Positions 2,146-44,172 of a stretch of 64,000 bases of DNA are shown one piece after another. Source of the stretch: Escherichia coli. Its GTDB lineage: Bacteria; Pseudomonadota; Gammaproteobacteria; Enterobacterales; Enterobacteriaceae. How positions within the stretch are numbered: position 1 is the first letter of the stretch; the number at the start of each line of letters is the position of its first letter. The position numbers were made by a program, and so were the translations under genes. The DNA lies in NCBI RefSeq assembly GCF_002854065.1, contig NZ_CP024147.1, one strand, 5' to 3'. Under the pieces are notes generated by a model that was not told the origin of the DNA, did not search any database, and worked only from the letters and a program-made list of their open reading frames with translations.

Positions 2146-3348
2146 TTAACGCAGCCATTCAGGCAAATCGTTTAATCCCATTGCCTGACGGATAAGTTGT
2201 GGCTTAACGCCAGGAAGCGTGTCGGCCAGTTTCAAACCAATATCACGCAGCAGTTTTTTCGCCGGATTGGTACCGGAAAACAGATCGCGGAATCCCTGCA
2301 TACCAGCCAGCATCAGCGCCGCGCTGTGCTTGCGGCTACGTTCATAGCGGCGCAGGTAAATGTACTGCCCGATGTCTTTACCCTGACGATGCAACCGTTT
2401 CAGTTCAGCAATCAGCTCTGCGGCGTCCATAAAGCCGAGATTAACGCCCTGCCCCGCCAGTGGGTGAATGGTATGCGCGGCGTCGCCCACCAGCGCCAGA
2501 CGATGTGCGGCAAACTGGCGCGCATAACGCCCCGTCAGCGGGAACACCTGACGCTCGCTCTCAACCTTGCATAAGCCCAGGCGATTATCAAAAGCGATAT
2601 TTAACGCGCGATTAAATTCGTCTTCCCCTGCCTGCTGCATCCGCTGCGCTTCCTCTGGCGACAGCGACCAGACAATCGAGCAAAGATGCGGATCGCTAAG
2701 CGGCAAAAAGGCCAGAATGCCTTCGCCGTGGAAAACCTGCCGCGCCACCGCATCATGCGGTTCTTCCGTGCGTATGGTCGCTACCAGCGCGTGATGCTGA
2801 TAATCCCAGAAAGTCAGTGGAATATCGGCTTTGTTGCGCAACCAGGAATTAGCGCCGTCCGCGCCAATCACCAGACGCGCCGTTAACATACTGCCATCTT
2901 TCAGCGTCAGGAAGGTTTCGTTTTCTCCCCAGGCGACCTGCTGTAATTCTGCGGGGGCCAACAGAGTGATATCTGACGCCTGCTGCGCTTTGTTCCACAG
3001 CGCGTAGTGAATCACTGAGTTTTCAACGATATGCCCAAGATGGCTATAGCCCATGCTTTGATCGTCAAACGAAATGTGACCAAAACTGTCTTTGTCCCAC
3101 ACTTCCATGCCGTGATAGCAACTGGCCCTACGAGAGAGAATGTCCTGCCAGACGCCAAGACGGGTGAGTAATTTTTCGCTGGCGGCATTGATAGCCGAAA
3201 CGCGCAGTTGTGGTGGTGCATCCGCCGCCAGAGGTTCCGGTACGCGCTGCTCCAGTATGGCAACGCGTAAGCCGCTCCCCTGTAAGCCGCAGGCAACCGC
3301 CAGCCCCACCATGCCGCCGCCAACAATGGCTACATCAACACTTTGCAT
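2146..3348 (-). CDS. ubiI: FAD-dependent 2-octaprenylphenol hydroxylase UbiI (VisC)
   Basis: 400-aa ORF with N-terminal FAD motif VAIVGGGMVGLA; UbiH-paralog; conserved position. Confidence 0.9.
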   Translation of the reverse strand: MQSVDVAIVGGGMVGLAVACGLQGSGLRVAILEQRVPEPLAADAPPQLRVSAINAASEKLLTRLGVWQDILSRRASCYHGMEVWDKDSFGHISFDDQSMGYSHLGHIVENSVIHYALWNKAQQASDITLLAPAELQQVAWGENETFLTLKDGSMLTARLVIGADGANSWLRNKADIPLTFWDYQHHALVATIRTEEPHDAVARQVFHGEGILAFLPLSDPHLCSIVWSLSPEEAQRMQQAGEDEFNRALNIAFDNRLGLCKVESERQVFPLTGRYARQFAAHRLALVGDAAHTIHPLAGQGVNLGFMDAAELIAELKRLHRQGKDIGQYIYLRRYERSRKHSAALMLAGMQGFRDLFSGTNPAKKLLRDIGLKLADTLPGVKPQLIRQAMGLNDLPEWLR

Positions 3349-3370
3349 TGTTTATTCCTTAAAACCGCCT

Positions 3371-4549
3371 TCAACGCGCCACCCAACCGAGGGTGCGCTG
3401 CGCCAGCACATCGCGTGCCGGGGTGAATAATTCCATCGTCATCAGCCCGATGTTGCGCCCGACAACCAGTGGCGTCCAACGGTTGGCAAAAAGATGTACA
3501 AGGCTGTCCGTGACGCCAATGGTTGCTTCGCGATCGCTCTGTCGACGCTGCTGATAACGACACAATACGCCGTAATCACCCATGTCTTCTCCGCGCTCCT
3601 GCGCCTGAGTCAGGGTTTCCGCAAGGCTCATCACATCACGCATACCGAGATTAAATCCTTGCCCAGCGATGGGGTGCAGAGTTTGCGCCGCATTGCCCAC
3701 CAGCACGGTACGATGGGTAATAGGTTTAGCGGCGCGGGTTAACGCCAGCGGATAAGCACTGCGTTTACCGGCGTGGGTAATTTGCCCCAGTCGCCAGCCA
3801 AAGGCAGACTGGAGTTCACGGCAAAACTTCTCGTCGCTCCACGACAGCACCTCTTCGCGCCGTTCCAGTGGATGACACCAGACCAGCGAACAGCGTCCGT
3901 CAGACATCGGCAACATCGCCAGCGGGCCATGTTGCGTAAAGCGTTCAAACGCGCGGCCTTCGTGCGCAACAGAAGTCGCAACGTTGGCAATCACTGCCAG
4001 TTGTTCGTAAGGCTCCTGCTGCCAGTCAACGCCGCACACAGTGGCTAACGCTGAATGGGTGCCATCAGCGGCTACCAGCACGCGGCCCGTCAGCGTCTCG
4101 CCACACTCCAGCGTCACTTCAACATGACTCTGAGTACGGGCAACGTTAGCCACGCGATCCGGGCAATGCAGCGTTACGCCAGGTGCTTTGCGCAGCAATG
4201 CAAACAGTCGTTGCCCGACATTGTGCAATTCGACAACCTGCCCCAGCGCCGCCAGTTGGTAATCTTCTGCGGCGAGGGTGACGAATCCGGCATGACCACG
4301 ATCGCTGACTTGCACGGTAGTGATGGCGGTTGCGCAATCAGCCAGAGATTGCCAGACGCCGATGCGCGCCAGTTGCTGACAGGTCCCCGCCGCTAGAGCA
4401 ATAGCTCGTCCATCAAAGCCCGGATGAGCATGTGACTCTGGCGCGGTCGCTTCAATCAAATGTACCGGCAGCGCTCCGTGACTTAACCGGGAAATAGCCA
4501 GCGCCAGCGTCGCGCCCGCCATGCCGCCACCGACGATGATTACGCTCAT
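3371..4549 (-). CDS. ubiH: 2-octaprenyl-6-methoxyphenol hydroxylase UbiH
   Basis: 392-aa ORF MSVIIVGGGMAGATLALA...; FAD monooxygenase; overlaps pepP stop by 4 nt. Confidence 0.92.
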   Translation of the reverse strand: MSVIIVGGGMAGATLALAISRLSHGALPVHLIEATAPESHAHPGFDGRAIALAAGTCQQLARIGVWQSLADCATAITTVQVSDRGHAGFVTLAAEDYQLAALGQVVELHNVGQRLFALLRKAPGVTLHCPDRVANVARTQSHVEVTLECGETLTGRVLVAADGTHSALATVCGVDWQQEPYEQLAVIANVATSVAHEGRAFERFTQHGPLAMLPMSDGRCSLVWCHPLERREEVLSWSDEKFCRELQSAFGWRLGQITHAGKRSAYPLALTRAAKPITHRTVLVGNAAQTLHPIAGQGFNLGMRDVMSLAETLTQAQERGEDMGDYGVLCRYQQRRQSDREATIGVTDSLVHLFANRWTPLVVGRNIGLMTMELFTPARDVLAQRTLGWVAR

Positions 4550-5871
4550 TGCTTTCTCGCAGCTGCCATCAACGCTTCGATTTCTTCCGGCTTTTTCACC
4601 ACGCTGGCGGTGAGGTTTTCGTTACCGGTTTCGGTAATCACAATGTCGTCTTCAATACGAATGCCGATACCGCGATATTGTTCTGGCACTTCTGCATCCG
4701 GCGCAATATACAGCCCTGGCTCTACGGTCAGTACCATGCCCGGTTCCAGAATGCGCGAGCGATCCTGACCATAAACACCCACGTCATGGACATCCAGTCC
4801 TAACCAGTGGCTAAGGCCATGCATAAAGAAAGGACGATGGGCGTTCTGAGCGATCAGTTCATCAACATCACCTTTCAGGATGCCGAGTTTTACCAGGCCG
4901 CTAACCATGATGCGCACCACTTCACCGGTGACTTCCTGAATGGAAGTTCCCGGACGATACAGGCGCAGGCTGGTTTCGAGAGACTCCAGCACAATGTCGT
5001 AGATTTCACGCTGAGCCTGAGTGAATTTGCCGTTGACCGGGAAGGTGCGGGTAATATCGCCAGCGTAACCTTTGTATTCGCAACCCGCGTCAATCAACAC
5101 CAGATCGCCGTCGTGCAGTTCACACTCGTTTTCGGTGTAATGCAGAATGCAGCCGTTTTCACCGCTGCCGACAATGGTGTTATAGGAAGGATAGCGCGCG
5201 CCGTGGCGGTTAAATTCGTGGTGAATTTCGCCTTCCAGGTGGTACTCGAACATTCCCGGACGGCATTTTTCCATCGCCCGGGTATGCGCCAGGGCGGTGA
5301 TTTCACCCGCGCGGCGAAGTACGGCAATCTCTTCCGGCGATTTGAACAGGCGCATTTCATGAACAATGGGACGCCAGTCGATCATCGTTGCCGGCGCGGT
5401 GAGATTTTGCCGCGAACCTTTACGCAGTTTCTCAAGCGCGCTGTTCACGATTTCATCAGCATATGCATATTCGCCCTGGGCGTGGTAAACCACATCCAGA
5501 CCATTAAGTAGTTGATAAAGTTGCTGATTAATTTCGCTGAATGCCAGTGCGCGGTCAACGCCCAGTTTCTCTGGCGCGGCATCCTGACCTAAACGACGGC
5601 CAAACCAGATCTCCGCCGTCAGGTCGCGAACGCGGTTAAACAGAACGCTGTGGTTATGAGTGTCATCGCTTTTAATCAGCACCAGCACCGCTTCCGGTTC
5701 GTTAAAGCCGGTGAAGTACCAGAAGTCACTGTTCTGACGATAGGGGTATTCGCTGTCGGCGCTACGTGTTACTTCTGGTGCAGCAAAAATCAGCGCGGCG
5801 CTGCCGGGTTGCATTTGCTCCACCAGGGCCTGACGGCGACGCTGAAACTCTTGCCGGGATATCTCACTCAT
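4546..5871 (-). CDS. pepP: Xaa-Pro aminopeptidase (aminopeptidase P II)
   Basis: Track ORF 4546..6084 trimmed to internal Met (MSEISRQEFQRRRQAL...) giving 441 aa; M24 peptidase motifs. Confidence 0.92.
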   Translation of the reverse strand: MSEISRQEFQRRRQALVEQMQPGSAALIFAAPEVTRSADSEYPYRQNSDFWYFTGFNEPEAVLVLIKSDDTHNHSVLFNRVRDLTAEIWFGRRLGQDAAPEKLGVDRALAFSEINQQLYQLLNGLDVVYHAQGEYAYADEIVNSALEKLRKGSRQNLTAPATMIDWRPIVHEMRLFKSPEEIAVLRRAGEITALAHTRAMEKCRPGMFEYHLEGEIHHEFNRHGARYPSYNTIVGSGENGCILHYTENECELHDGDLVLIDAGCEYKGYAGDITRTFPVNGKFTQAQREIYDIVLESLETSLRLYRPGTSIQEVTGEVVRIMVSGLVKLGILKGDVDELIAQNAHRPFFMHGLSHWLGLDVHDVGVYGQDRSRILEPGMVLTVEPGLYIAPDAEVPEQYRGIGIRIEDDIVITETGNENLTASVVKKPEEIEALMAAARKQ

Positions 5872-5896
5872 AACACTCTCCTTACGTTTTTTGTTT

Positions 5897-6475
5897 TTAG
5901 TGTAGAGTCGGTTTTTGTACTTCTGGCGCGGTCGGTTGCGGATGAGTAAAGGTGTCGTGGCATAACAGCGCGGCAACACGGACGTATTCGATGATCTCTT
6001 CAAGCGACATTTCAAGCTCTTCCTGATCTTCGTCTTCGTCGTAGCCCAACTGCGCGATGTTACGCAGATCGTCGATGGCTTCACCGGTTTCGCCGGTCAC
6101 TTTGTCCAGCTTCGGTTGCGTAACGCCAAGACCAAGCAGGAAGTGATTGACCCAACCTGCCAGCGCATCAGCCCGATCGAAAACGCTGACATCATCGCCA
6201 TCAGGCAGATAAAGCTGAAAAAGGAAGCCGTCATCCTGCAGGGCATCGCTGGTGGCAGAGTGCATTTTACGCAGTGCCTGTGCCAGCTCATGACCGAAAG
6301 CCATGCCTTCGTTCGTCAGGTCGTGAAGTAGCGGTAGCCATGAGCTGTCATCGTTACCGCCACATATCATCCCACTGATTAAACCATGCATCTCAGCAGG
6401 GGTCAGACCCGTCCCTTGTTGGTTCAGATACTGGTTCATTTCGTTGTAACCAGGCATTTCGTTCTGTATAGACAT
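5897..6475 (-). CDS. ygfB: UPF0149 family protein YgfB
   Basis: ORF 5897..6481; product [15 protein letters not shown]... 192 aa from Met 3. Confidence 0.9.
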
Positions 6476-20840: not shown

Positions 20841-21029
20841 TCAATATTCCTTTTCAACTGACTCAAAATGGAGAAATACACTCCGCCGCCTTATGACGGG
20901 CAGTCTGACAAGGGTAAACAATAAAGCATAATTTTGCCAAATAGATCACAGATTTCTCATCTGTATCACCTTGCTATTGGCGAAAAAAAGACCCGCAGAG
21001 CGGGGCTCAGACAGATATCAATGTGCGCT

Positions 21030-21140
21030 TTGTCATGCCGGATGCGGCGTGAACGCCTTATCCGGCCTACAAAAACCTGCGAATTCAATATATTGCAGGA
21101 TACGTGTAGGCCTGATAAGCGTAGCGCATCAGGCAATTTT
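21030..21140. repeat. REP/BIME palindromic repeats in mscS-fbaA intergenic region
   Basis: gccggatgcggcgtgaacgccttatccggcctac ... gtaggcctgataagcgtagcgcatcaggc; typical REP consensus. Confidence 0.85.
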
Positions 21141-21148
21141 TCTTTTGG

Positions 21149-21176
21149 CAAAAAAAAGACCCGCAGAGCGGGCCTT
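21149..21176 (-). terminator. rho-independent terminator of fbaA
   Basis: On minus strand ggcccgctctgcgggtc followed by T8; immediately 3' of fbaA stop. Confidence 0.7.
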
Positions 21177-30351: not shown

Positions 30352-31625
30352 TGCGCGGCCTCCCCGATATCAACGCCAAATTGTGCCAGCAGATATTTCT
30401 CGGCCTGTTCATTCCAGATGCCGTGCGTTTCCTCAACCAGCCGCGCCAACTCTTTAAACAGCGGATCGGTTTTGCCTTTTTCGGCAAAATCGGCAATGGC
30501 AGTGAGCGGCATGGTCACGCCGTTATAAATGAGTTTTTTACCGCCAGGGATATCCGGCAGATTGAGCACGGTTTCTGGCACCGCATCCAGGCCACCGATA
30601 TGGGTCACCATAAACGACGGCTGTAACTGCCTAGTGGCGCTAAGGGCAATCGCCTCTTTCATGTCGTCCGTTGAACCGCCGGATGTACCGACAACGTGCG
30701 TGCTGTTGTAATGAACGTTGTAGAAATTAAACGGCACTTTGAAGTTTTTATCCGTCGGCCCGGCAAAGAAGTTCAGACAGCCATCTTCCGCCAGTAATTC
30801 ATCAGCCATCTCAACGACAGCAGGCACCGCCGCATAAACAAAAATGTCATCGAACCCGGCATCTCCTGTCAGCGCCCGCAGCATCTGGACAGGATCGCTC
30901 ATCCCTTTGGTATTCACATACACCAGCTCAATGCCTTTACTGGCCGCCAGTTCCACCGGCAGCAGCTTCTGTACCTGCGCCAGACGTTTGTCGTCGATAT
31001 CGACCACCACCACCCGCGACGGTTGTATGCCGCCGTTAATGGCGTAATCGATAGCGCCAATGCCCATCGGACCTGCACACGCCAGCAGTGCAATATTGCC
31101 GCCAGGTTTGACGCCCATGCGATGCTCATAAACATATTGCGTGGTGTGATAATTGGCATGATAAGCACCAATAATGCAGCACATAGGCTCTGCCAGCGAC
31201 GCCGCAGCAAAATAAGAGCCGTGATACGGTAATACGCAGCCCAAATTAATGGCGATTTCGGGAATAATCATATAAGTGGCATTGCCGCCAAAATATTCGT
31301 AGCTGTAGCCCGCTGAATATCCGCTTGGTAACCCCATCGCCGGTTGCAATACAAAACGCTGGCCTTTTTTATATTTGCCAGTGAGATTTTTACCCACTTC
31401 GATAATAACCCCGGCACATTCATGCCCGGTAATGACCGGATGATTTTCTAAATCGTCGGGTACGCGTTTATGTTCACTACCGAGTAACGCCGCTTTCCAG
31501 GTGGATAAACAGACGCTGTCAGAAATCACACTCACCAGTAATTCATTATCGGTAATTTCTGGCAGTTCAAATTCGCGCAGACGGACATCCCGCTTGCCAT
31601 AAATAGCAGCAACTTTGGTTTTCAT
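30348..31625 (-). CDS. yggP: zinc-type polyol/sugar-phosphate dehydrogenase YggP
   Basis: 425-aa ORF MKTKVAAIYGKRDVRLREFELPE...GHECAGVI; MDR superfamily. Confidence 0.85.
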   Translation of the reverse strand: MKTKVAAIYGKRDVRLREFELPEITDNELLVSVISDSVCLSTWKAALLGSEHKRVPDDLENHPVITGHECAGVIIEVGKNLTGKYKKGQRFVLQPAMGLPSGYSAGYSYEYFGGNATYMIIPEIAINLGCVLPYHGSYFAAASLAEPMCCIIGAYHANYHTTQYVYEHRMGVKPGGNIALLACAGPMGIGAIDYAINGGIQPSRVVVVDIDDKRLAQVQKLLPVELAASKGIELVYVNTKGMSDPVQMLRALTGDAGFDDIFVYAAVPAVVEMADELLAEDGCLNFFAGPTDKNFKVPFNFYNVHYNSTHVVGTSGGSTDDMKEAIALSATRQLQPSFMVTHIGGLDAVPETVLNLPDIPGGKKLIYNGVTMPLTAIADFAEKGKTDPLFKELARLVEETHGIWNEQAEKYLLAQFGVDIGEAAQ

Positions 31626-31639
31626 TTTTACCTCTGTAA

Positions 31640-33028
31640 TCAGTGTTTATGTTCGGCGGTTAATTGATTAAATAAAGTGTCGAGTTTTGGATCGCCAATA
31701 TAGTTATTAATCAATATCAGTGGTTTATCCGTCACACGTTTCACGCGCCCTTCCAGACTGGCATGAGTAACGACGATATCCGCATCCGCAGGCACGTTTT
31801 CTATGGCGTAATGTTTTACTTCAATTGCCAGCCCCGCTTTTTCCAGGCGTTTACGGAAGGTGGTCGCGCCCATCGCACTGGAGCCCATCCCCGCATCGCA
31901 AACAAAGGCGATACGCTTAACCCTGCTTAACGAGAATGCACCCTCTTGTTTCATCGCCTTAACCGCATTGGCTGACTGAGCAAACTCATCTTCGCTCTCC
32001 GTTTCCACCGTTTTTTCCATCTTCAGTATCAGCGAAGTGATAGCAAAGGACACCAGGGTACCTACCGTAACACCGGCAATTGTCGCCAGGAACGAACCTT
32101 TCGGCGTCAGCGCCAGGTAAGCAAAGATAGACCCCGGACTTGGGCCAGCCACCAGACCACCGTCCAGTAAGTTAAACATCCAGGTGCCAGACATACCGCC
32201 CGCAATCATGGCAATAATAGTCAGCGGCTTCATCAGCACATATGGGAAATACAGTTCGTGGATGCCACCGAGGAAGTGAATAATCATCGCCCCGGGCGCA
32301 GAACGTTTACTCATCCCTTTACCAAACAAGGTAAACGCCAGCAGCAGCCCCAGGCCCGGACCTGGGTTAGAGGCCACCATAAAGAAGATGGATTTACCGT
32401 TAACCGAAGCCTGTTGCATTCCCAGCGGATAATAGACGCCCTGATCGATCGCATTATTAAGGAAAAGCACTTTCGCCGGTTCATTGATGACTGACAGCAG
32501 AGGCAGATAACCCGCATGTACCAGCGCCTCAATACACTCTTTGACGAAAGTATTGGCAATTAACACCGCCGGGCCGATCACTTCAAAACCCAGCAGACAA
32601 AGGAGCATCCCCGCGATACCTAATGAGAAGTTATTGATAACCATCTCAAAACCGGCAGGTATGCGTTTTTCCAGTGCCTTATCAACATATTTTATGACCA
32701 GACCACCGAGCGGCCCCATAATCATTGAGCCAAGGAACATCGGGATCTCTGCGCCGACGATCACACCAATAGTACCTATTCCGCCCATGACCGCGCCGCG
32801 TTTACCGCCGACCAGATGACCACCGGTAGAACCAATCATCACGGGCAATAAATAGGTAATCATCGGGCCGACAATTTTGGCGAAATGTTCGTTAGGCAGC
32901 CAACCGGTGGGAATAAATAACGCAGTAATAAAACCCCAGGCAATAAAAGCACCAATATTGGGGATGACCATTGCAGTCAAAAAGCCCCCAAAAGCCTGGA
33001 CCTTTGCACGAGCAGACTTGTTTTCCAT
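31640..33028 (-). CDS. cmtA: mannitol-type PTS enzyme IICB (cryptic)
   Basis: 462-aa membrane ORF MENKSARAKVQAFGGFLTAMVIPNIGAFIAWG... Confidence 0.9.
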   Translation of the reverse strand: MENKSARAKVQAFGGFLTAMVIPNIGAFIAWGFITALFIPTGWLPNEHFAKIVGPMITYLLPVMIGSTGGHLVGGKRGAVMGGIGTIGVIVGAEIPMFLGSMIMGPLGGLVIKYVDKALEKRIPAGFEMVINNFSLGIAGMLLCLLGFEVIGPAVLIANTFVKECIEALVHAGYLPLLSVINEPAKVLFLNNAIDQGVYYPLGMQQASVNGKSIFFMVASNPGPGLGLLLAFTLFGKGMSKRSAPGAMIIHFLGGIHELYFPYVLMKPLTIIAMIAGGMSGTWMFNLLDGGLVAGPSPGSIFAYLALTPKGSFLATIAGVTVGTLVSFAITSLILKMEKTVETESEDEFAQSANAVKAMKQEGAFSLSRVKRIAFVCDAGMGSSAMGATTFRKRLEKAGLAIEVKHYAIENVPADADIVVTHASLEGRVKRVTDKPLILINNYIGDPKLDTLFNQLTAEHKH

Positions 33029-33055
33029 AATATTATCCTGTAGAGGAGAGAGTAA

Positions 33056-33499
33056 TTATCCGCGGCTGATAATGTCCGCTAATTGTTTTTCTGATGATGC
33101 TGTTAAGAGTTGTTCGAGTATTTCTTCTTCGCACAGTAATTCACTTAACGCCTGAATAGCGCCAATGTGCGAATCGGCATCGGCAGCAGAGAGTCCGATG
33201 AGTAATTTAATTGGTTCGTCATTCCCCGGAAAATAAACACCTTGTTCAAGTAATGTCAAAGACATCCCGGTTTTAAGCGCCCCACATTCCGGTCGCGCAT
33301 GAGGCATTGCCACGCCTGGTGCGAGAATATAATAAGGGCCATTGTTGATGGTGGAATCTTTAATAGCCTGAATGTAATTCTCGCTGATATAGTTTTTATC
33401 CAGCAATGATGCCATCGAGAAATCGATAGCTTCCTGCCAATCTTTTGCTGAATGTATAACTGAGATTGATGATTCTGGAAAATAATCACTAAGCCGCAT
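33056..33499 (-). CDS. cmtB: mannitol-type PTS enzyme IIA (cryptic)
   Basis: 147-aa ORF; PTS EIIA(Mtl) fold with active-site His region GVAMPHARPE. Confidence 0.9.
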   Translation of the reverse strand: MRLSDYFPESSISVIHSAKDWQEAIDFSMASLLDKNYISENYIQAIKDSTINNGPYYILAPGVAMPHARPECGALKTGMSLTLLEQGVYFPGNDEPIKLLIGLSAADADSHIGAIQALSELLCEEEILEQLLTASSEKQLADIISRG

Positions 33500-33570
33500 A
33501 AATTATCCTTATTTTATTTTTAGGGTGCCGTCCGGCGGTAAAAATAAAATACTCGGGTAATGACTCCAAC

Positions 33571-34074
33571 TTATTGATAGTGTTTTATGTTCAGATAATG
33601 CCCGATGACTTTGTCATGCAGCTCCACCGATTTTGAGAACGACAGCGACTTCCGTCCCAGCCGTGCCAGGTGCTGCCTCAGATTCAGGTTATGCCGCTCA
33701 ATTCGCTGCGTATATCGCTTGCTGATTACGTGCAGCTTTCCCTTCAGGCGGGATTCATACAGCGGCCAGCCATCCGTCATCCATATCACCACGTCAAAGG
33801 GTGACAGCAGGCTCATAAGACGCCCCAGCGTCGCCATAGTGCGTTCACCGAATACGTGCGCAACAACCGTCTTCCGGAGACTGTCATACGCGTAAAACAG
33901 CCAGCGCTGGCGCGATTTAGCCCCGACATAGCCCCACTGTTCGTCCATTTCCGCGCAGACGATGACGTCACTGCCCGGCTGTATGCGCGAGGTTACCGAC
34001 TGCGGCCTGAGTTTTTTAAGTGACGTAAAATCGTGTTGAGGCCAACGCCCATAATGCGGGCAGTTGCCCGGCAT
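33571..34074 (-). CDS. insB: IS1 InsB' frame (expressed as InsAB' by -1 frameshift)
   Basis: 167-aa ORF overlapping insA 3' end; IS1 transposase catalytic region. Confidence 0.9.
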
Positions 34075-34268
34075 CCAACGCCATTCATGGCCATATCAAT
34101 GATTTTCTGGTGCGTACCGGGTTGAGAAGCGGTGTAAGTGAACTGCAGTTGCCATGTTTTACGGCAGTGAGAGCAGAGATAGCGCTGATGTCCGGCGGTG
34201 CTTTTGCCGTTACGCACCACCCCGTCAGTAGCTGAACAGGAGGGACAGCTGATAGAAACAGAAGCCAC
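33993..34268 (-). CDS. insA: IS1 InsA (transposition inhibitor / N-terminal part of InsAB' transposase)
   Basis: 91-aa [46 protein letters not shown]... Confidence 0.95.
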
Positions 34269-34653
34269 TGGAGCACCTCAAAAACACCATCATACACTAA
34301 ATCAGTAAGTTGGCAGCATCACCAAATACTCGTGCGGTTTAATGAAAGCAATTGGGTACGCGAGAAGAAAAACCCCATAAACCAAAATAATAAAACCTTA
34401 AATAACAACAATATGAAATTGATATCTTTAAAGTCAACTTTGTGTTTGTTATGTTTATCACAAAATCAACATTTTGTTTGTTATTGTATTTGTGATGCAT
34501 ATCTCTATTTATTTATTGAATGTTCGAAAACATACTTTTCTAATGCAATGTTTTTTCGCTATACCCCTTTATAGAATCTGAATTCTCACCTGTCGGCTGT
34601 TTTCTCCTCATCTCATGTGACATATTCCCACACTTTACTCAAGGAAGATTGTC

Positions 34654-35562
34654 ATGAAAGCACCTGTTTCATTAACCTCATTTCGCCCACAAAAATCTCT
34701 TGCTATCGCCATCGGCGTGCTTGCCGTGGTTGTGCTGCCATTTCTCTCGTATTACACCGTTAATGAAGGTGAACGCGGCATTTTGCTGCGCTACGGAAAA
34801 ATCGTAAAAGTTGCCGAGCCGGGTCTGGGTTTTAAGATCCCGTTTATGGAAAGCGTGGAGAAAATTTCCACGCGTAATCAGGCTGTGGTCTATCAGGGAT
34901 TACAGGCCTACAGCCGCGACCAGCAACCGGCACAAATGACAGTATCAGTCAGCTTCCACATTAAACCTTCAGAAGCAGGCGCGGTTTATACCACCTACAA
35001 CACCATTGAAGCATTAAAAGATCGTCTGATTGTCCGTCAGTTGCCAACTCAACTGGAGAACGTTTTCGGCCAATATACCGCCATCAGCGCTGTACAGGAT
35101 CGTACAAAACTGGTTCAGGATCTGCAAAATGCCATGCGCAAAGCCGTTGTTGGGCCAGTGGTAATTGACGGGGTCCAGATTGAAAATATTGATTTTTCTG
35201 ACGCTTATGAAAAGTCGATTGAAGACCGAATGAAAGCAGAAGTCGCCATTGCCACGCGTAAGCAAAATCTGGAAACAGAGAAAATCCAGGCGCAAATAGC
35301 GGTAACTCAGGCCCAGGCAGAAGCAGACAGTAAACTGGCGGCAGCCAAAGCAGAAGCGGAAACTATTCGCGTAAGAGGCGCGGCAGAGGCTGAAACTATT
35401 CGTTTAAAAAGTGCGGCTGAAGCAGAAGCAATCCGCCTGCGCGGTGAAGCTCTGCGGGATAATCCCGGACTTGTAGCCCTCACCACTGCCGAACGTTGGG
35501 ACGGTAAACTGCCCGATACCATGATCCCCGGCAGCACAGTTCCGTTTATCTCTACTAAGTAA
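34654..35562 (+). CDS. SPFH/band-7 (prohibitin/stomatin-like) membrane protein with C-terminal Ala/Glu-rich repeats
   Basis: 302-aa ORF; N-terminal TM helix IAIGVLAVVVLPFL, SPFH-like core, C-terminal repeats AEAETIRVRGAAEAETIRLKSAAEAEAIRLRGEA; preceded by 330-bp AT-rich region. Confidence 0.7.
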   Translation: MKAPVSLTSFRPQKSLAIAIGVLAVVVLPFLSYYTVNEGERGILLRYGKIVKVAEPGLGFKIPFMESVEKISTRNQAVVYQGLQAYSRDQQPAQMTVSVSFHIKPSEAGAVYTTYNTIEALKDRLIVRQLPTQLENVFGQYTAISAVQDRTKLVQDLQNAMRKAVVGPVVIDGVQIENIDFSDAYEKSIEDRMKAEVAIATRKQNLETEKIQAQIAVTQAQAEADSKLAAAKAEAETIRVRGAAEAETIRLKSAAEAEAIRLRGEALRDNPGLVALTTAERWDGKLPDTMIPGSTVPFISTK

Positions 35563-35604
35563 AAAAAGGGCCGCTTTCGCGGCCCTTGAGAGTGATGGCA
35601 AAAG

Positions 35605-35725
<121 letters not shown>

Positions 35726-35781
35726 TTACCAATAATCTAAAGGGCCGCTTTCGCGGCCCTTCTCACAAAACGTCTTACTGA

Positions 35782-37773
35782 TTACAGCAGCGCTTTTGCT
35801 TTCGCAACAACGTTATCAACAGTGAAGCCGAACTCTTCAAACAGCAGCTCTGCCGGAGCAGATTCACCGAAGGTGGTCATACCGACGATAGCACCGTTCA
35901 GGCCAACATACTTGTACCAGTAGTCAGCAATACCCGCTTCTACCGCAACGCGTGCAGTAACCGCTTTCGGCAGTACGGATTCACGGTAAGCCGCATCCTG
36001 CTTGTCGAATGCATCGGTAGACGGCATGGAAACCACGCGCGCCTTCACGCCTTCGGCAGTCAGTTTTTCGTAGGCGGCAACAGCCAGTTCAACTTCCGAA
36101 CCGGTCGCGATGAAGATCAGTTCCGGCTGACCGGCACAGTCTTTCAGCACATAACCACCGCGCGCGATGTTTGCCAGCTGCTCTTCAGTACGCTCCTGCT
36201 GCGCCAGGTTCTGACGGGAGAGGATAAGCGCGGTCGGGCCGTCCTGACGCTCAACACCGTATTTCCATGCCACTGCAGATTCAACCTGGTCACATGGACG
36301 CCATGTAGACATGTTCGGGGTCACGCGCAGAGAAGCAACCTGCTCTACCGGCTGGTGAGTCGGGCCATCTTCGCCCAGACCGATGGAGTCGTGGGTGTAA
36401 ACCATCACCTGACGCTGTTTCATCAGCGCAGCCATACGTACGGCATTACGTGCGTATTCTACGAACATCAGGAAGGTGGAGGTGTACGGCAGGAAGCCAC
36501 CGTGCAGGGAGATACCGTTAGCAATCGCGGTCATACCGAACTCGCGAACACCGTAGTGGATGTAGTTACCCGCAGCATCTTCGTTGATTGCTTTAGAACC
36601 AGACCACAGGGTCAGGTTAGACGGTGCCAGGTCAGCGGAGCCGCCGAGGAATTCCGGCAACAGCGGACCGAACGCTTCGATAGCATTCTGCGACGCTTTA
36701 CGGCTGGCGATTTTCGCCGGATTAGCCTGCAGTTTAGCAATGAACTCTTTCGCTTTCGCGTCGAAGTCAGACGGCATTTCACCTTTCATACGACGGGTGA
36801 ATTCAGCCGCTTCCTGCGGGAAGGCTTTGGCGTAAGCCGCGAATTTCTCATTCCAGGCAGCTTCTTTCGCCTGGCCTGCTTCTTTCGCATCCCACTGCGC
36901 ATAGATTTCAGACGGGATTTCGAACGGTGCGTATTTCCAGCCCAGCTGTTCGCGGGTCAGAGCGATTTCTGCATCACCCAGCGGCGCACCGTGGGAGTCG
37001 TGAGTACCGGCTTTGTTCGGGGAACCGAAACCGATGATGGTTTTGCACATCAGCAGGGACGGTTTGTCAGTCACTGCGCGCGCTTCTTCTACTGCGCGTT
37101 TGATGGATGCTGCGTCATGACCGTCGATGTCGCGAATAACGTGCCAGCCGTAAGCTTCGAAACGCATTGCGGTGTCGTCGGTGAACCAGCCTTCAACGTG
37201 ACCATCAATAGAGATACCGTTGTCATCGTAGAACGCAATCAGTTTACCCAGCTTCAGCGTACCCGCCAGAGAGCAAACTTCGTGGGAGATGCCTTCCATC
37301 ATGCAGCCGTCGCCCATGAAGGCGTAGGTGTAGTGATCGACAATGTCGTGGCCCGGACGGTTAAACTGCGCCGCCAGCGTTTTTTCTGCAATCGCCATAC
37401 CTACTGCGTTGGCAATACCCTGCCCCAGCGGACCGGTGGTGGTTTCCACACCAGCGGTGTAACCCACTTCCGGGTGGCCCGGAGTTTTAGAGTGCAGCTG
37501 ACGGAAGTTTTTCAGTTCTTCCATCGGCAGATCGTAACCGGTGAGGTGCAGCAGGCTGTAGATCAGCATGGAGCCGTGGCCGTTGGACAGCACGAAGCGG
37601 TCACGGTCAGCCCAGGACGGATTCTGCGGGTTGTGTTTCAGGAAATCACGCCACAGGACTTCGGCAATGTCAGCCATACCCATAGGGGCACCCGGGTGAC
37701 CGGATTTGGCTTTCTGTACTGCGTCCATGCTCAGCGCACGAATAGCATTGGCAAGCTCTTTACGTGAGGACAT
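35782..37773 (-). CDS. tktA: transketolase 1
   Basis: Track ORF 35782..37803 trimmed to [41 protein letters not shown]... (663 aa). Confidence 0.95.
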
Positions 37774-38050
37774 TTTGACTCCAGATCGGATGATGAAGGG
37801 CACGCCCTTAACGACTTGACGACAGCGCGTTTTGGGCTACGCCGGAAAATTTGCCAACAATTTACCGCAAGCCGCGCGTCATGTACATGGAACATCCTTT
37901 TGCCGCTTCAGAAATCTCTGGATCATGCTCGCATGTTGCGCAATCTACTCGCCCGTCCGCTGCGCTTTTCCTTATACTGAGACTGAGCGTCGGTTCACCT
38001 GCAAACGGCGCATTTTTAGAATAATCCTGACCTTGTGCGGAAGAAAAAAC

Positions 38051-38809
38051 ATGAAAATTCGCGCCTTATTGGTAGCAATGAGCGTGGCAACGGTACTGAC
38101 TGGTTGCCAGAATATGGACTCCAACGGACTGCTCTCATCAGGAGCGGAAGCTTTTCAGGCTTACAGTTTGAGTGATGCTCAGGTGAAAACCCTGAGCGAT
38201 CAGGCATGTCAGGAGATGGACAGCAAGGCGACGATTGCGCCAGCCAATAGCGAATACGCTAAACGTCTGACAACCATTGCCAACGCGCTAGGCAACAATA
38301 TCAACGGTCAGCCAGTGAATTACAAAGTGTATATGGCGAAGGATGTGAACGCCTTTGCGATGGCTAACGGCTGTATCCGCGTCTATAGCGGGCTGATGGA
38401 TATGATGACGGATAACGAAGTCGAAGCGGTGATCGGTCACGAAATGGGGCACGTGGCGTTAGGCCATGTGAAGAAAGGGATGCAGGTGGCACTTGGTACA
38501 AATGCCGTGCGAGTCGCGGCGGCCTCTGCGGGCGGTATCGTCGGCAGTTTATCGCAATCACAGCTTGGTGATCTGGGCGAGAAATTAGTCAATTCGCAAT
38601 TCTCCCAGCGCCAGGAAGCAGAGGCGGATGATTACTCCTACGATTTACTGCGCCAACGCGGCATCAGTCCGGCAGGTCTTGCCACCAGCTTTGAAAAACT
38701 GGCAAAACTGGAAGAAGGTCGCCAAAGCTCAATGTTTGACGACCATCCAGCATCCGCCGAACGCGCCCAGCATATTCGCGATCGTATGAGCGCGGACGGG
38801 ATTAAGTAA
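38051..38809 (+). CDS. loiP: outer-membrane lipoprotein metalloprotease LoiP (YggG), M48 family
   Basis: Track ORF 37832..38809 trimmed to MKIRALLVAMSVATVLTGCQ (lipobox) ... HEMGHVALGH zinc motif; 252 aa. Confidence 0.92.
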   Translation: MKIRALLVAMSVATVLTGCQNMDSNGLLSSGAEAFQAYSLSDAQVKTLSDQACQEMDSKATIAPANSEYAKRLTTIANALGNNINGQPVNYKVYMAKDVNAFAMANGCIRVYSGLMDMMTDNEVEAVIGHEMGHVALGHVKKGMQVALGTNAVRVAAASAGGIVGSLSQSQLGDLGEKLVNSQFSQRQEAEADDYSYDLLRQRGISPAGLATSFEKLAKLEEGRQSSMFDDHPASAERAQHIRDRMSADGIK

Positions 38810-38820
38810 GGCATGGTGGT

Positions 38821-39120
38821 GCCAAACGTAGTTCAGATAAGGCATTTACGCCGCATCTGACATAAATGGCACATTCACTACCTCGTGCGCATTGCCGGAT
38901 GCGATGCTGGCGCATCTTATCCGGCCTACGGGTGCCAAACGTAGGTCAGATAAGGCGTTCACCCCGCATCTGACATGAATGGCACATTTGTTACCTTGTG
39001 CGCATTGCCGGATGCGATGCTGGCGCATCTTATCCGGCCTACGGGTGCCGAACGTAGGTCGGATAAGGCGTTCACGCTGCATCCGACATTAATGGCACGT
39101 TTTACCCGTGCGCATCGCAT
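38821..39120. repeat. BIME cluster: about 2.6 tandem copies of a ~113-bp REP-containing unit
   Basis: Unit gccaaacgtag..cagataaggc..ccgcatctgacat..gcgcattgccggatgcgatgctggcgcatcttatccggcctacgggt repeated from 38821, 38934 and 39046. Confidence 0.9.
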
Positions 39121-39127
39121 CTGGTGC

Positions 39128-40048
39128 TTACTCGCCCTTTTTCGCCGCCTGAATATACAGCATTTCCAGCGCCAGCGTTGCCGCTGCCAGAGCGGTGATT
39201 TCCGACTGATCGTATGCCGGAGCCACTTCCACTACGTCCATCCCAACGATGTTGAGATCTTTCAGGCCGCGTACCAGTTTAATAGCGCGATCGGAGGTCA
39301 GACCGCCAATTACCGGCGTACCGGTTCCCGGCGCAAATGCAGGATCCAGGCAGTCGATATCAAAGGTCAGGTAAACCGGCATATCACCCACAATTTGTTT
39401 CACCTGGGCGATAACGTCATCCACGCTGCGATCGTTCACCTGGCAGGCGTCCAGCACGGTAAAGCCGTTGTCTTTATCAAATTCGGTACGAATACCAATC
39501 TGCACGGAATGATTCGGATCGATCAGACCTTCTTTCGGCGCGGTATAGAACATGGTGCCGTGGTCAAATTCACAACCGTTCGCGTAGGTATCGGTGTGGG
39601 CGTCAAAGTGTACCAGCGCCATTTTGCCGAAATGCTTCGCATGAGCACGCAGCAGCGGCAGCGTAACAAAGTGGTCACCACCGAAGGAGAGCATACGCTT
39701 ACCGGCAGCCAGCAGCTTCTCGGCGTGTGCCTGCAGTTTTTCGCTCATCTCACGGGCATCGCCGAAGGCATATACCAGATCGCCGCAGTCCACCACGTTC
39801 AGACGCTCGCGCATGTCGAAATTCCACGGGAAGCGGTTGTGTTCCCAGGCCAGGTTAGTCGAAACCTGGCGAATCGCCGCCGGGCCATGACGACCACCGG
39901 CACGGCCAGAGGTGGCCATGTCGAACGGCACGCCGGTGATCACCCAGTCGGCATCGCTGTCATACGGCTGGAAGTTCATCGGCAGGCGTAAAAAACCAAA
40001 GGCGTTGGAAACCAGTGAGTTATCGTATTGATGACCTAAGGTGCTCAT
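39128..40048 (-). CDS. speB: agmatinase (agmatine ureohydrolase)
   Basis: 306-aa [63 protein letters not shown]...; arginase fold. Confidence 0.95.
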
Positions 40049-40071
40049 GGATGGACTCCTATTACAAAGTC

Positions 40072-40118
40072 GATATAAAAAAACCCTTCCGCGTCGTTAG
40101 GCCCGACGAGGAAGGGTT
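40072..40118 (-). terminator. rho-independent terminator 25 nt upstream of speB start
   Basis: Minus strand aacccttcctcgtcgggcctaacgacgcggaagggtt followed by T7. Confidence 0.6.
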
Positions 40119-40183
40119 GGATTTGCGAAACACAAGTTTGTGCTAATTATCGCCTTAAATGGGCGAGGCATCAAGCGAGGTTG

Positions 40184-40650
40184 CTATTTCCGACACGGTG
40201 GCGGCGCATAGCCATTGTTATCTGCCGGAAAGGCTTGTCCAGAGCACGGCGGCAGCGCGTTTTGCGCCTGGCCTTGTAATTCAAAGGCGGCAAAGCCGAT
40301 TACACCGGTATTACGCACATCGCCTTGCGCCGAATTGGCTGCGTAGGAATCAGCAACGTTGGCGAACTGAAAAGCCGCTTCGGTATGTTTATCTTTGCGG
40401 AATCCTTTAATCGCTAACGAATCTCCGGCATTCACAATATAGCCGTTGTTATTCAGCGAACCTTGCTTGCCGTTCAGCACATCCAGGCCATCAACCGTAG
40501 CAACGATCTCGTAGTTGGTGTTACGACTGTAATTACGAACATATAATTGATAATTCATTCCGACTCTGGCGTGGACAATATAGCGTGGTTCATTATTGGA
40601 TGAATCATAAACACGCGTAATAGGTAGAGAATTAAAATTACCATCGCGAA
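40184..40650 (-). pseudogene. 3' fragment of unknown gene, 5'-truncated by IS1 copy 2 (Asn/Tyr/Gly-rich, two C-terminal Cys)
   Basis: Minus-strand frame is open from IS1 boundary (40650) to stop at 40184, about 155 codons ending ...NALPPCSGQAFPADNNGYAPPPCRK; track shows only the part from the first Met (40184..40558); not recognisable as speA. Confidence 0.45.
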
Positions 40651-40665
40651 GGTAATGACTCCAAC

Positions 40666-41169
40666 TTATTGATAGTGTTTTATGTTCAGATAATGCCCGA
40701 TGACTTTGTCATGCAGCTCCACCGATTTTGAGAACGACAGCGACTTCCGTCCCAGCCGTGCCAGGTGCTGCCTCAGATTCAGGTTATGCCGCTCAATTCG
40801 CTGCGTATATCGCTTGCTGATTACGTGCAGCTTTCCCTTCAGGCGGGATTCATACAGCGGCCAGCCATCCGTCATCCATATCACCACGTCAAAGGGTGAC
40901 AGCAGGCTCATAAGACGCCCCAGCGTCGCCATAGTGCGTTCACCGAATACGTGCGCAACAACCGTCTTCCGGAGCCTGTCATACGCGTAAAACAGCCAGC
41001 GCTGGCGCGATTTAGCCCCGACGTATCCCCACTGTTCGTCCATTTCCGCGCAGACGATGACGTCACTGCCCGGCTGTATGCGCGAGGTTACCGACTGCGG
41101 CCTGAGTTTTTTAAATGGCGGAAAATCGTGTTGAGGCCAACGCCCATAATGCGGGCGGTTGCCCGGCAT
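40666..41169 (-). CDS. insB: IS1 InsB' frame
   Basis: 167-aa ORF; differs from copy 1 at several residues ([22 protein letters not shown]...). Confidence 0.9.
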
Positions 41170-41363
41170 CCAACGCCATTCATGGCCATATCAATGATTT
41201 TCTGGTGCGTACCGGGTTGAGAAGCGGTGTAAGTGAACTGCAGTTGCCATGTTTTACGGCAGTGAGAGCAGAGATAGCGCTGATGTCCGGCAGTGCTTTT
41301 GCCGTTACGCACCACCCCGTCAGTAGCTGAACAGGAGGGACAGCTGATAGAAACAGAAGCCAC
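41088..41363 (-). CDS. insA: IS1 InsA
   Basis: 91-aa ORF; one residue differs from copy 1 (NTIFRHL vs NTILRHL). Confidence 0.95.
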
Positions 41364-41418
41364 TGGAGCACCTCAAAAACACCATCATACACTAAATCAG
41401 TAAGTTGGCAGCATCACC

Positions 41419-42058
41419 CTCATGGGGTTATACATCAGCCGGGATTTCAAAAGCCTTCGGTGATGATAAATATCAACAGCAGTATTTATCACAGCGCAGC
41501 GGGTTTGCTATAGGTGAGGATGGTTTTGCATGGGGCCGCATGGACTATGATTCCGCGCTAATTGTCGATGCTACGGATTTGCCCGAAGATCAGTATTTCG
41601 AGGTGCGTAATCGTAATTCGGCACCAACGATTGTAAAAGGTGGTCAGAAAACAACGCTTTCTATGGAGCCGTATCGTAAGGTCGCACCAGAAGCTGAACA
41701 ACTCTACAGCAATAATATGGATGCTTATTACAATCTGAAAACGGAGTCTACTTCTACCTGGGCGAAACCAGGGCAAGTTTATAAAGTTAAACTTTCCGCA
41801 ACCCGGAATCTGACCGTCACCGGACGCCTTTATTTTGACGGTCAACCGTTGATTAACGCCAGGGTCGTTGGTGGGAATGCAATGGCAGATACTGATGGCT
41901 TATTTGTTGGTGATTTTACACTCCAGACAAATGAACAACTTAAATCTGTGAAAGTTAAACAAGACGGGCGTGATTTCATCTGTCCACTGCTGGATGAAAA
42001 TATCAAACTTGCGCAGGGTATTATGCAAATTCGTGAGGTTAATTGTGAAGTTCAATAA
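41419..42058 (+). pseudogene. C-terminal fragment of fimbrial outer-membrane usher, 5'-truncated by IS1 copy 2
   Basis: Frame open from IS1 boundary; C-terminus ...KVKQDGRDFICPLLDENIKLAQGIMQIREVNCEVQ parallels the two-Cys usher tail of FimD (...VQVKWGEEENAHCVANYQLPPESQQQLLTQLSAECR) as I recall it. Confidence 0.55.
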
Positions 42059-42062
42059 ATGG

Positions 42063-42755
42063 ATGGCTCTTTTTTTAGGATTGTTGGCTGGGTTTTCTAC
42101 CGTAGCGCAAGCTATTGAGGTGTTTCCTATTGTAAAAGAAATAAAGGAAGAAACGCCAAGAGATAATTATATTACCGTTAAGTCTATGTTTAAGCTGAAT
42201 GATAAAGTTGATGTTCCAGAACCAGACAAACAGCAATATGAATTCGTTACGCTTGATCTCTATCACATAAAAAACCCAGGCGATAAAAAAGAAAATATGG
42301 AAAAGGAATTGGGGACGGAAAACCCTGCGCTGGTATTTTCACCGACCAAACTGGTTATTCCATTCGGTGAAGAAAGGAAAATTCGCATCATGCCTATGCG
42401 TCCGGTTGATCATGAAACGGTATACAGGCTGCGTGTACGACCAAGTTATCCGGAACAGGCCCTTGAAAAAGGGAAGGTCCGTTTTGCTATTGGATATGAT
42501 GTTTTAATTCGTTATCTCCCGTCAGGTAAGCACACTCAGGGGATACAGATTAGCTGTGATAAAAACAACTGGCATTTGAAAGCAACCGGTAATGTAAGAA
42601 GTGAATTACGTAAATTGGTGATTGATGGCCGGATGCAGGAGGGGAATTTCAATGTTTATCCGGAAAACAGCAGAACTCTTAACGTGAATAAACGTCTTTC
42701 CTTCGAAATGGATGGAAAAACGCTGGTTTACGAAAATTGTCTGCTTAAGGAGTAA
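42063..42755 (+). CDS. putative periplasmic fimbrial chaperone (PapD-like)
   Basis: Track ORF 41970..42755 trimmed to MALFLGLLAGFSTVAQA signal peptide; about 230 aa; RYLP-type motif (FAIGYDVLIRYLP); follows usher fragment. Confidence 0.45.
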   Translation: MALFLGLLAGFSTVAQAIEVFPIVKEIKEETPRDNYITVKSMFKLNDKVDVPEPDKQQYEFVTLDLYHIKNPGDKKENMEKELGTENPALVFSPTKLVIPFGEERKIRIMPMRPVDHETVYRLRVRPSYPEQALEKGKVRFAIGYDVLIRYLPSGKHTQGIQISCDKNNWHLKATGNVRSELRKLVIDGRMQEGNFNVYPENSRTLNVNKRLSFEMDGKTLVYENCLLKE

Positions 42756-42758
42756 TTC

Positions 42759-43649
42759 ATGCGCTCATGGTTCTGTTTAATTGCACTGTTGTTGCCTGGC
42801 ATTGTATTTGCGAGTGGTGAGATGATTATTCAGCCTCAAAGTAAGGGGGCGGTTCACTTCCTTGCCCGTGGTCTTTCTTCTGGCGGCGACAATATTATCT
42901 CTGCTGCTTACAGCGCCGGGCGGCCTCTGTCTGTTTTATTTAGCCCGACAGGAAACGGACATTGTGAGGGCGATTTTTTGGCTGTGGATCATCTCCGGTT
43001 GTCTGTTCAGCAAGCAGGTGAAAATACTTCTTATACCTGTGGCGTTCCGGTAACGATCGAAAGTCCTTCGAAGGATGGGATCCTGCGCCTTCAGTTAACG
43101 AACTCGACGTCTGTTCAGGATTTCTCCTCATTGATGAGAACAGACGGGGGCCTGAGACAGCAAATTGGTAATTTGCAAATAACCCAGCAAGGTAATGAAA
43201 GTTTTATTGTCCCGATTTATCTGGATCTCACTATTTTGCAGAATCAGGTGGTTACGATAGCTGCTTCATTTGAAAAGCCATCTCTTCAACTTGGGCTGGT
43301 AGGCCCGGAACATGATGCTTCAGAGACTGTGGGTCTGCGCGTCAGCAAAACATTACAGGCAGGTGAGGAGGCGATGCTTTATCGCGTAACATTTGAATCT
43401 TCTCAACTGAAGGATAATAGGTTCCATTTACTATCCTCTGTTGATCATCAGTTTATTCCTTATCAAATCTATATATCTGGTGTCGAAGTTACCCCTTCTC
43501 AGCCTTATGTAAGTGAGCTGCCGCAGGGAAAGGCAACTTCTGAATTGCTTGATGTAAGATTCAATTTGTCTGGCCGAGCTGTTCGTGGCATGGCTGCCGG
43601 TTCGCGCTTACTTGATACGGTAACCGCAGTAGTAACCCCGGAAAGTTAA
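42759..43649 (+). CDS. putative fimbrial tip adhesin or minor subunit (secreted, 296 aa)
   Basis: Signal peptide MRSWFCLIALLLPGIVFA; two Cys in N-terminal half; C-terminal beta-strand-like TVTAVVTP; operon position. Confidence 0.45.
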   Translation: MRSWFCLIALLLPGIVFASGEMIIQPQSKGAVHFLARGLSSGGDNIISAAYSAGRPLSVLFSPTGNGHCEGDFLAVDHLRLSVQQAGENTSYTCGVPVTIESPSKDGILRLQLTNSTSVQDFSSLMRTDGGLRQQIGNLQITQQGNESFIVPIYLDLTILQNQVVTIAASFEKPSLQLGLVGPEHDASETVGLRVSKTLQAGEEAMLYRVTFESSQLKDNRFHLLSSVDHQFIPYQIYISGVEVTPSQPYVSELPQGKATSELLDVRFNLSGRAVRGMAAGSRLLDTVTAVVTPES

Positions 43650-43662
43650 ACTGGAGAATAAA

Positions 43663-44172
43663 ATGAAATTAACTTTTTTACCTGTTGTGCTGTCGGTAGC
43701 ATTTTGTAGTCAGGTTCAGGCTGTTGTACCGGTCAAAACATCTATTGATGTGCAGGCTGAAATCAGTACTGCGGTTAATATTTATGTTAATGGCCAGGAT
43801 GTCACCAATAAATCTATCAGTGTCAATCTGAAAGATGAAGGTGGCTATATGAAAGGCAGTACGCCACCTTTCCAGTTTGTTGGCAACGCCAGTTCTGTTG
43901 CCCTTTCGCTCCAGGCTCCGCCAGCGAATGGGTTGGTCGGCCCTGAAAATAAAGTTATGCCTTTACTGACATCCTGGTTCAATCCGGATGCGAATGCTGA
44001 AGTTTCGACAAGTTTTCCCTTTTCAAATATCAAGGTTTATCCAACGTTACAGGACGTACCTGATCCACAGAATGGTGTAAAAGTGGTATTTCGCTCGAAG
44101 GAGCGTAGCGAAACTTTCCCCTTGGGAACATATAGCGGGACTTATACCGTTATTGTAACGCCATCAGTTTAA
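43663..44172 (+). CDS. putative fimbrial subunit (secreted, 169 aa)
   Basis: Signal peptide MKLTFLPVVLSVAFCSQVQA; pilin-like size; C-terminal alternating hydrophobic strand GTYSGTYTVIVTPSV. Confidence 0.45.
   Translation: MKLTFLPVVLSVAFCSQVQAVVPVKTSIDVQAEISTAVNIYVNGQDVTNKSISVNLKDEGGYMKGSTPPFQFVGNASSVALSLQAPPANGLVGPENKVMPLLTSWFNPDANAEVSTSFPFSNIKVYPTLQDVPDPQNGVKVVFRSKERSETFPLGTYSGTYTVIVTPSV

Follow-up and report, generated by a model that had tools for sequence, protein, structure and literature searches.

Two complete copies of IS1 lie 6.3 kb apart, in the same orientation, within the 64,000-nucleotide stretch of Escherichia coli DNA analysed in this study (referred to as "the window"). This raises the question of how the first of them (copy 1), located between cmtB and a gene for a prohibitin-family protein, reached its site, and whether its arrival was connected with that of the second (copy 2). 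As described below, we hold with high confidence that copy 1 is a recent, lineage-specific, simple insertion of a type I element, and that it is independent of copy 2, which sits at an inversion breakpoint.

Anatomy and insertion site of copy 1

The features of copy 1 and its neighbours are as follows (TSD, target site duplication; IRR and IRL, terminal inverted repeats).

33056–33499, minus strand: cmtB (PTS mannitol-type IIA subunit), 56 bp separating its ATG from the IRR of copy 1
33547–33555, no strand: left TSD copy, AAATACTCG, 9 bp, abutting copy 1
33556–34323, minus strand: IS1 copy 1, a complete 768-bp element of type I (IS1A-like), from direct reading of the window and comparison with MG1655
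33556–33578, plus strand: IRR of copy 1, GGTAATGACTCCAACTTATTGAT, facing cmtB
33571–34074, minus strand: insB' frame of copy 1 (Pfam DDE_Tnp_IS1, 259 bits; NCBIfam NF033558, 243 bits with a cut-off of 100)
33993–34268, minus strand: insA of copy 1, 91 aa, GTG start (Pfam Zn_ribbon_InsA and HTH_Tnp_IS1)
34011–34017, minus strand: A6C (AAAAAAC) programmed -1 frameshift motif of copy 1, element positions 307–313 (gtttttt on the plus strand)
34301–34323, minus strand: IRL of copy 1, GGTGATGCTGCCAACTTACTGAT (minus-strand reading), on the side of the prohibitin-family gene
34324–34332, no strand: right TSD copy, AAATACTCG, 9 bp, abutting copy 1
34654–35562, plus strand: prohibitin-family protein gene, its start 330 bp away from the IRL of copy 1

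The ends of copy 1 are exact: IRR begins at 33556, where the left junction reads AAAATACTCG followed directly by GGTAATGACTCC..., and IRL (the reverse complement of GGTGATGCTGCC...) ends at 34323. The only portion of the insB' frame that is translated is that downstream of A6C, which supplies the C-terminal portion of InsAB' (232 aa). Both copies are exactly 768 bp long, with ends identical to those of IS1A-E and IS1H of MG1655, and the only IS1 ends within the window are those of these two copies. The other repeats in the window are all of the REP/BIME type. They form intergenic palindromic arrays at 21029–21150, 35594–35713, 38815–39091, 58134–58238 and 61397–61608, with tandem pairs of 113 bp at 38818–39043 (between loiP and speB) and of 87 bp at 61397–61570.

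With respect to length and ends, insA/insB' with the A6C motif, and the curated transposase models, both copies have the features of the IS1 family. IS1 also duplicates 8 or 9 bp of its target (PMC12428005), and such a duplication is present at copy 1 and absent from copy 2 (CATCGCGAA vs CTCATGGGG), the latter because of the rearrangement described below. At copy 1, AAATACTCG occupies 33547–33555 and 34324–34332 and flanks the element exactly, just as the sequence-only reading had it; the chance of a 9-bp identity at one fixed pair of positions is 3.8e-6. Copy 1 looks structurally intact: it has a terminal repeat at each end, insA and A6C are present, and the insB' frame is open. This intactness, and an InsAB' protein identical to that of K-12 IS1A, suggest that it may still be active.

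The site without the element is directly observed in the closest relative found, E. coli CUWW06 (NZ_CP182139.1), which differs from the window by 13 SNPs in approximately 62.5 kb when two IS1 events are excluded. Apart from these two events the sequences are collinear, and the backbone is 99.98% identical. The left flank of copy 1 (31000–33555) corresponds to positions 1–2556 of CUWW06 locus L001 with 100% identity (2556/2556), and the right flank (34324–37000) to positions 2548–5224 with 99.93% identity (2675/2677). The two flanks thus overlap by exactly 9 bp in CUWW06 (L001 2548–2556), where AAATACTCG is present once; the empty site reads GGTAAAAATAAAATACTCGTGCGGTTTAATG, in the wider context ...GGTAAAAATAAAATACTCGTGCGGTTT.... 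A single AAATACTCG with a 9-bp overlap of the flanks is the signature of simple transposition with target duplication. The exact duplication, together with an uninterrupted empty site in a near-identical relative, bears out the earlier description of copy 1 as a simple insertion, and we found no evidence against it.

Neither junction of copy 1 occurs as a single contiguous match in any of 5,426 complete RefSeq E. coli genomes, and an exact-pattern scan of a collection of species-representative genomes yielded no match to the left junction. Since the CUWW06 site is empty and the junctions are absent from the complete genomes, the insertion is younger than the split from CUWW06-like relatives. 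We infer that it is recent and lineage-specific, and that the transposition took place within this lineage. It might be argued that copy 1 was imported, already inserted, on a segment recombined from another strain or a close relative, as E. coli strains often carry IS1 close to this site. However, its flanks show 0 and 2 differences from CUWW06 per 2.6 kb, with no block of elevated divergence, and the exact junction is found in no complete E. coli genome, so that no donor is available among them. We regard import as very improbable, and even an imported copy 1 would still be the product of simple transposition with target duplication.

The preferred reading, a simple insertion made within this lineage, would involve the following steps. 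A type I (IS1A-like) element would have transposed into the AT-rich spacer between cmtB and the prohibitin-family gene of an E. coli-type chromosome; the transposase would have made a staggered cut of 9 bp in the target, and repair would have produced the AAATACTCG duplication. No later rearrangement would have affected the site, leaving a simple insertion. The target is the cmtB/prohibitin-family intergenic spacer of E. coli, and the target segment has a G+C content of 23–33% versus approximately 55% for IS1 itself. The insertion cuts cmtB off from everything upstream of position −56, and from its position copy 1 may affect cmtBA expression. Promoter-like matches near the site numbered 3, versus 2.7 expected from shuffled sequence, and one promoter-like site (34316–34289) overlaps the IRL of copy 1. 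A displaced cmtB promoter was considered and dropped, because the matches from the promoter scan were at chance level.

Isoforms and transposases of the two copies

The sequence-only reading held that copies 1 and 2 are distinct iso-forms, a claim that is incompatible with identical sequences. Ungapped alignment of 33556–34323 with 40651–41418, elements of the same length and orientation, revealed differences at 8 of 768 bases (99.0% identity; 1.04% divergence). Both copies were also compared with every IS1 annotated in E. coli K-12 MG1655, seven in total. Copy 1 differs from IS1A/E/H by 1 nt, from IS1B/C by 9, from IS1D by 10 and from IS1F by 72, and the corresponding distances for copy 2 are 8, 1, 3 and 74 nt. 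Among the references, IS1A differs from IS1B at 9 positions, from IS1D at 9 and from IS1F at 73, which reproduces the mismatch counts (9, 9 and 73) reported for the four IS1 types of K-12 (PMC12428005). The comparison directly places copy 1 in type I (1 nt from IS1A/E/H) and copy 2 in type II (1 nt from IS1B/C), and the two are indeed distinct iso-forms.

Nine positions are diagnostic for type I versus type II in K-12 (127, 262, 298, 301, 304, 393, 396, 444 and 704). Copy 1 carries the type I base at eight of them, the exception being position 262, which is T (A in type I, C in type II); copy 2 carries the type II base at eight of them, the exception being position 704, which has T, the base of types I and III. 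Copy 1 resembles K-12 IS1A/E/H in its 768-bp length, identical terminal repeats, insA, A6C motif, InsAB' protein and 9-bp duplication, but differs by the one base at position 262 (A to T, synonymous in insA) and in its location upstream of cmtB. Copy 2 resembles K-12 IS1B/C in its type II diagnostic bases, including those for L81F and S130R, but at position 704 (40715 in the window) its base is T and theirs A, so that it is without L217Q.

It is conceivable that copies 1 and 2 are sister copies, and that their 8 differences represent mutations after insertion, gene conversion or sequencing errors. Their equal length, equal orientation, 99.0% identity and separation of only 6.3 kb would fit such an origin. 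However, seven of the eight differences lie at positions diagnostic for type I versus type II, and the eighth (262) also varies between types. Moreover, each copy has 100% identical counterparts elsewhere. Those of copy 1 are numerous on E. coli chromosomes and plasmids, where they are annotated as the IS1A family and the 262T variant is widespread; copy 2 is matched by the two IS1 elements of the CUWW06 pheV island. Finally, divergence from CUWW06 amounts to 0.02% in the flanking DNA, versus 1.04% between the two copies. A sister relationship is thus extremely improbable. Because their mutual divergence so exceeds that of the host backbone, the copies are not recent copies of one another, in agreement with the earlier claim, and copy 1 would have arrived independently of the type II copy 2.

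As copies 1 and 2 are genealogically unlinked, each site needs a reconstruction of its own. The expectation that the isoform difference would help to order the events at the two sites was therefore borne out in part: it establishes independent histories, but the difference alone gives no order.

The transposases of the two copies differ less than had been supposed. Both copies have A6C at element positions 307–313 and an uninterrupted 232-aa InsAB', which scores 259–261 bits with Pfam DDE_Tnp_IS1, 97–98 with HTH_Tnp_IS1 and 74 with Zn_ribbon_InsA, and 243–244 bits with the NCBIfam equivalog NF033558 (cut-off 100). Six of the 8 nucleotide differences are silent in the reading frames that are translated. 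InsA had been said to differ at several residues, as had InsB. This is correct for the annotated InsB frame, which differs at five (C5R, T17P, S18P, L19F and S65R), and the N-terminal strings quoted earlier were reproduced exactly; it does not hold for InsA, which differs at one residue only (L81F), or for InsAB', which differs at two (L81F and S130R). Four of the five InsB differences (C5R, T17P, S18P and L19F) are upstream of the frameshift site and outside InsAB'.

In K-12, type I copies account for nearly all transposition and type II copies for almost none, and L81F, in the DNA-binding domain, has been considered a possible cause of type II inactivity (PMC12428005). That the recent simple insertion was made by a type I element accords with this picture. 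Copy 2 and both CUWW06 copies have L217 in InsAB', versus Q217 in K-12 IS1B/C; the type II copies of K-12, reported to be nearly inactive, thus bear an extra change that is absent from the wild variant represented by copy 2 and CUWW06.

Copy 2 and an inversion of approximately 35 kb

The features that bear on copy 2 are as follows.

40184–40650, minus strand: 3' part of the speB-speA lipoprotein gene, cut by copy 2 (the CUWW06 match stops at position 5766 of locus L006, inside the gene at 5300–6031)
40651–41418, minus strand: IS1 copy 2, a complete 768-bp element of type II (IS1B-like), in the same orientation as copy 1, with no target duplication, at the inversion breakpoint
41419–42058, plus strand: 3' part of a tcfC/CooC-like usher gene (Pfam CooC_C), abutting the IRL end of copy 2 and inverted relative to CUWW06

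The flank CATCGCGAA (40642–40650) on one side of copy 2 and CTCATGGGG on the other form no duplication, because copy 2 joins a truncated lipoprotein gene to a truncated tcfC-like gene. The surroundings of copy 2 are directly seen to correspond to CUWW06 L006 1–5766 on the left and, beyond IS1, to L006 read backwards from 40847 to 18266. The lipoprotein gene lies between speB and speA in CUWW06, XJ34 and LY180, and on the right the sequence breaks within the pheV island, in the tcfC/CooC-like usher gene. The tRNA-Phe gene (49484–49559) is on the minus strand because the segment is inverted relative to CUWW06. As judged from this alignment, copy 2 is one breakpoint of an inversion of approximately 35 kb, comprising speA-pheV-tssKCB-tcfC, when CUWW06 or the gene order usual for E. 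coli (speB-speA-metK-galP) is taken as reference. The other breakpoint is predicted to lie approximately 12.5 kb past the end of the window, and the join over the 768-bp repeat is read from the window alone.

Adjacent to the tRNA-Phe gene, 41419–49600 is a degraded island with the truncated CooC/TcfC-like usher, three hypothetical genes, tssB, tssC, tssK, and fragments of DotU and JetD genes; these are the remains of a type VI secretion and fimbrial cluster. In CUWW06, tssB is annotated as frameshifted.

CUWW06 carries an identical IS1 with its IRL end abutting tcfC 1887 bp further upstream, in the orientation that the rearrangement requires. These 1887 bp of tcfC (CUWW06 L003 6769–8655), which adjoin IRL in CUWW06, are missing next to the IRL of copy 2, and their loss looks like an IS1-adjacent deletion. 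The most economical history of copy 2 would combine an inversion involving the CUWW06-type IS1 of the pheV island, which would have brought its present flanks together, with a deletion of the 1887 bp next to IS1. Two routes to the inversion are conceivable: intramolecular transposition into the target within the lipoprotein gene, or recombination with an IS1 copy inserted at that target. Because the two routes predict identical junction sequences, the junctions do not decide between them. A separate transposition into tcfC is a further possibility.

Missing duplications around IS elements usually result from recombination between IS copies or from adjacent deletion (PMC11708052). Copy 2 resembles the classical intramolecular inversions and adjacent deletions of IS1 in that it is without a duplication and joins genes that were ancestrally 35 kb apart and in opposite orientation. 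It differs from them in that the second breakpoint is outside the window.

The junctions of copy 2 were sought in several collections. The IRL-tcfC junction was found with 100% identity in independent Logan read-set assemblies (for example, ERR15740533 and DRR831865 carry it), and none of the complete RefSeq E. coli genomes contains a copy 2 junction. At the predicted far junction, the 5' fragment of the lipoprotein gene, expected to carry TTCGCGATG, would be joined to IRL; an exact-pattern scan of species-representative genomes gave no match to it. The predicted reciprocal product, a 92-aa N-terminal lipoprotein fragment that includes the 9-bp duplication, has been recorded; all the places found are in other lineages or have the opposite orientation, and no record was found of the version without the duplication. 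Neither of the predicted N-terminal TcfC fragments is in the protein index, a weak negative that fits the loss of 1887 bp.

Could the inversion be an assembly choice over inverted IS1 repeats? The genome would then be collinear with CUWW06; its lipoprotein gene would contain a simple IS1 insertion, and its tcfC a 1887-bp IS1-adjacent deletion. Short-read junctions are the same under both arrangements, the independent support covers the IRL-tcfC junction only, and the junction between the lipoprotein 5' fragment and IRL was encountered solely in another lineage, whose flank shows 99.57% identity to CUWW06. On the other hand, the window is contiguous over both IS1 copies, which suggests a finished assembly, and no positive sign of misassembly was found. 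We consider such an artefact unlikely, and a genuine inversion remains the preferred explanation of the flanks of copy 2.

The position of the two copies also brings to mind a composite transposon. If copies 1 and 2 were the arms of a Tn9-like element, they would have imported the 6.3-kb segment between them (with the prohibitin-family gene, tkt, loiP and speB), and two complete IS1 elements in direct orientation do bracket 34324–40650. However, the outer flanks (AAATACTCG vs CTCATGGGG) share no duplication, and copy 1 has one of its own. In addition, the bracketed genes are in their ancestral place and order, the native tkt-loiP-speB neighbourhood, in CUWW06, XJ34 and LY180, with no IS1 at these sites. 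Membership in a Tn9-like composite was therefore rejected, and we attach next to no credence to it; copies 1 and 2 are best explained as the separate insertion and breakpoint described above.

Recurrent IS1 targets and their significance

The spacer occupied by copy 1 has been hit by IS1 in other E. coli strains. Upstream of the cmtB ATG, six further insertions were found, each with its own 8- or 9-bp duplication, at 68, 78, 80, 84, 84 and 91 bp before the ATG, with different targets and in both orientations. The elements include type I-like and type II-like copies and two divergent isoforms with 52 and 65 differences from copy 1. The 35-bp stretch between 56 and 91 bp upstream of cmtB thus holds seven insertions, copy 1 included, at seven positions, and these represent at least four IS1 sequence variants. 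A suspected orientation bias upstream of cmtB was dropped, as the first searches saw the window orientation only and a chimeric query in the opposite orientation gave a similar number. IS1 insertions inside cmtB, and one IS1-bounded deletion of cmtA, also occur in other E. coli strains.

A similar situation exists in the lipoprotein gene, where at least three lineages, that of the window among them, have independently received an IS1 at the 9-bp target CATCGCGAA; both orientations and both type I and type II elements are represented. In CP055786.1 and two Logan runs, a type I IS1 occupies the CATCGCGAA target in the opposite orientation with its duplication intact; in a metagenome contig, with a backbone 99.57% identical to CUWW06, an IS1 occupies it in the window orientation; and in LY180, an IS1 lies 16 bp from it, with the duplication TTCCAGTTC. 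Both target regions are natural IS1 hot spots that have been hit repeatedly in independent E. coli lineages. IS1 has long been known for its regional and site preference for AT-rich DNA, and the recurrent targets fit this preference.

The insertions upstream of cmtB might have been selected and not merely targeted, as they could activate the cryptic cmtBA mannitol-type PTS operon or relieve its silencing, in the way that IS1 and IS5 act on bgl. We consider selection a speculative and rather doubtful explanation. The case resembles bgl activation, and IS1H upstream of flhDC in MG1655, in that an AT-rich regulatory spacer is hit a few tens of base pairs before the leading gene of a cryptic PTS operon, and in that independent insertions recur in the same short stretch upstream of cmtB in other strains. 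An IS1 insertion upstream of the bgl promoter has been used as a selectable event (PMC12428005). The cmtBA case differs from bgl in being known from sequence, where the recurrence may reflect target preference only.

Copy 1 is a standard IS1 insertion, and nothing about it departs from known IS1 biology. Its value is that of a clean, recent, lineage-specific marker, useful in strain typing and as an event dated relative to CUWW06-like relatives. The direct-repeat copies 1 and 2 bracket 6.3 kb with the prohibitin-family gene, tkt, loiP, speB and the 3' part of the lipoprotein gene. In this Tn9-like geometry, the bracketed segment could undergo deletion or amplification by recombination between the copies. 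The more consequential structure is the inversion of approximately 35 kb at copy 2, extending from speA to pheV to the remnant type VI/usher cluster. Finally, the short targets used repeatedly in many lineages illustrate the target preference of IS1, and they could be mined for its determinants.
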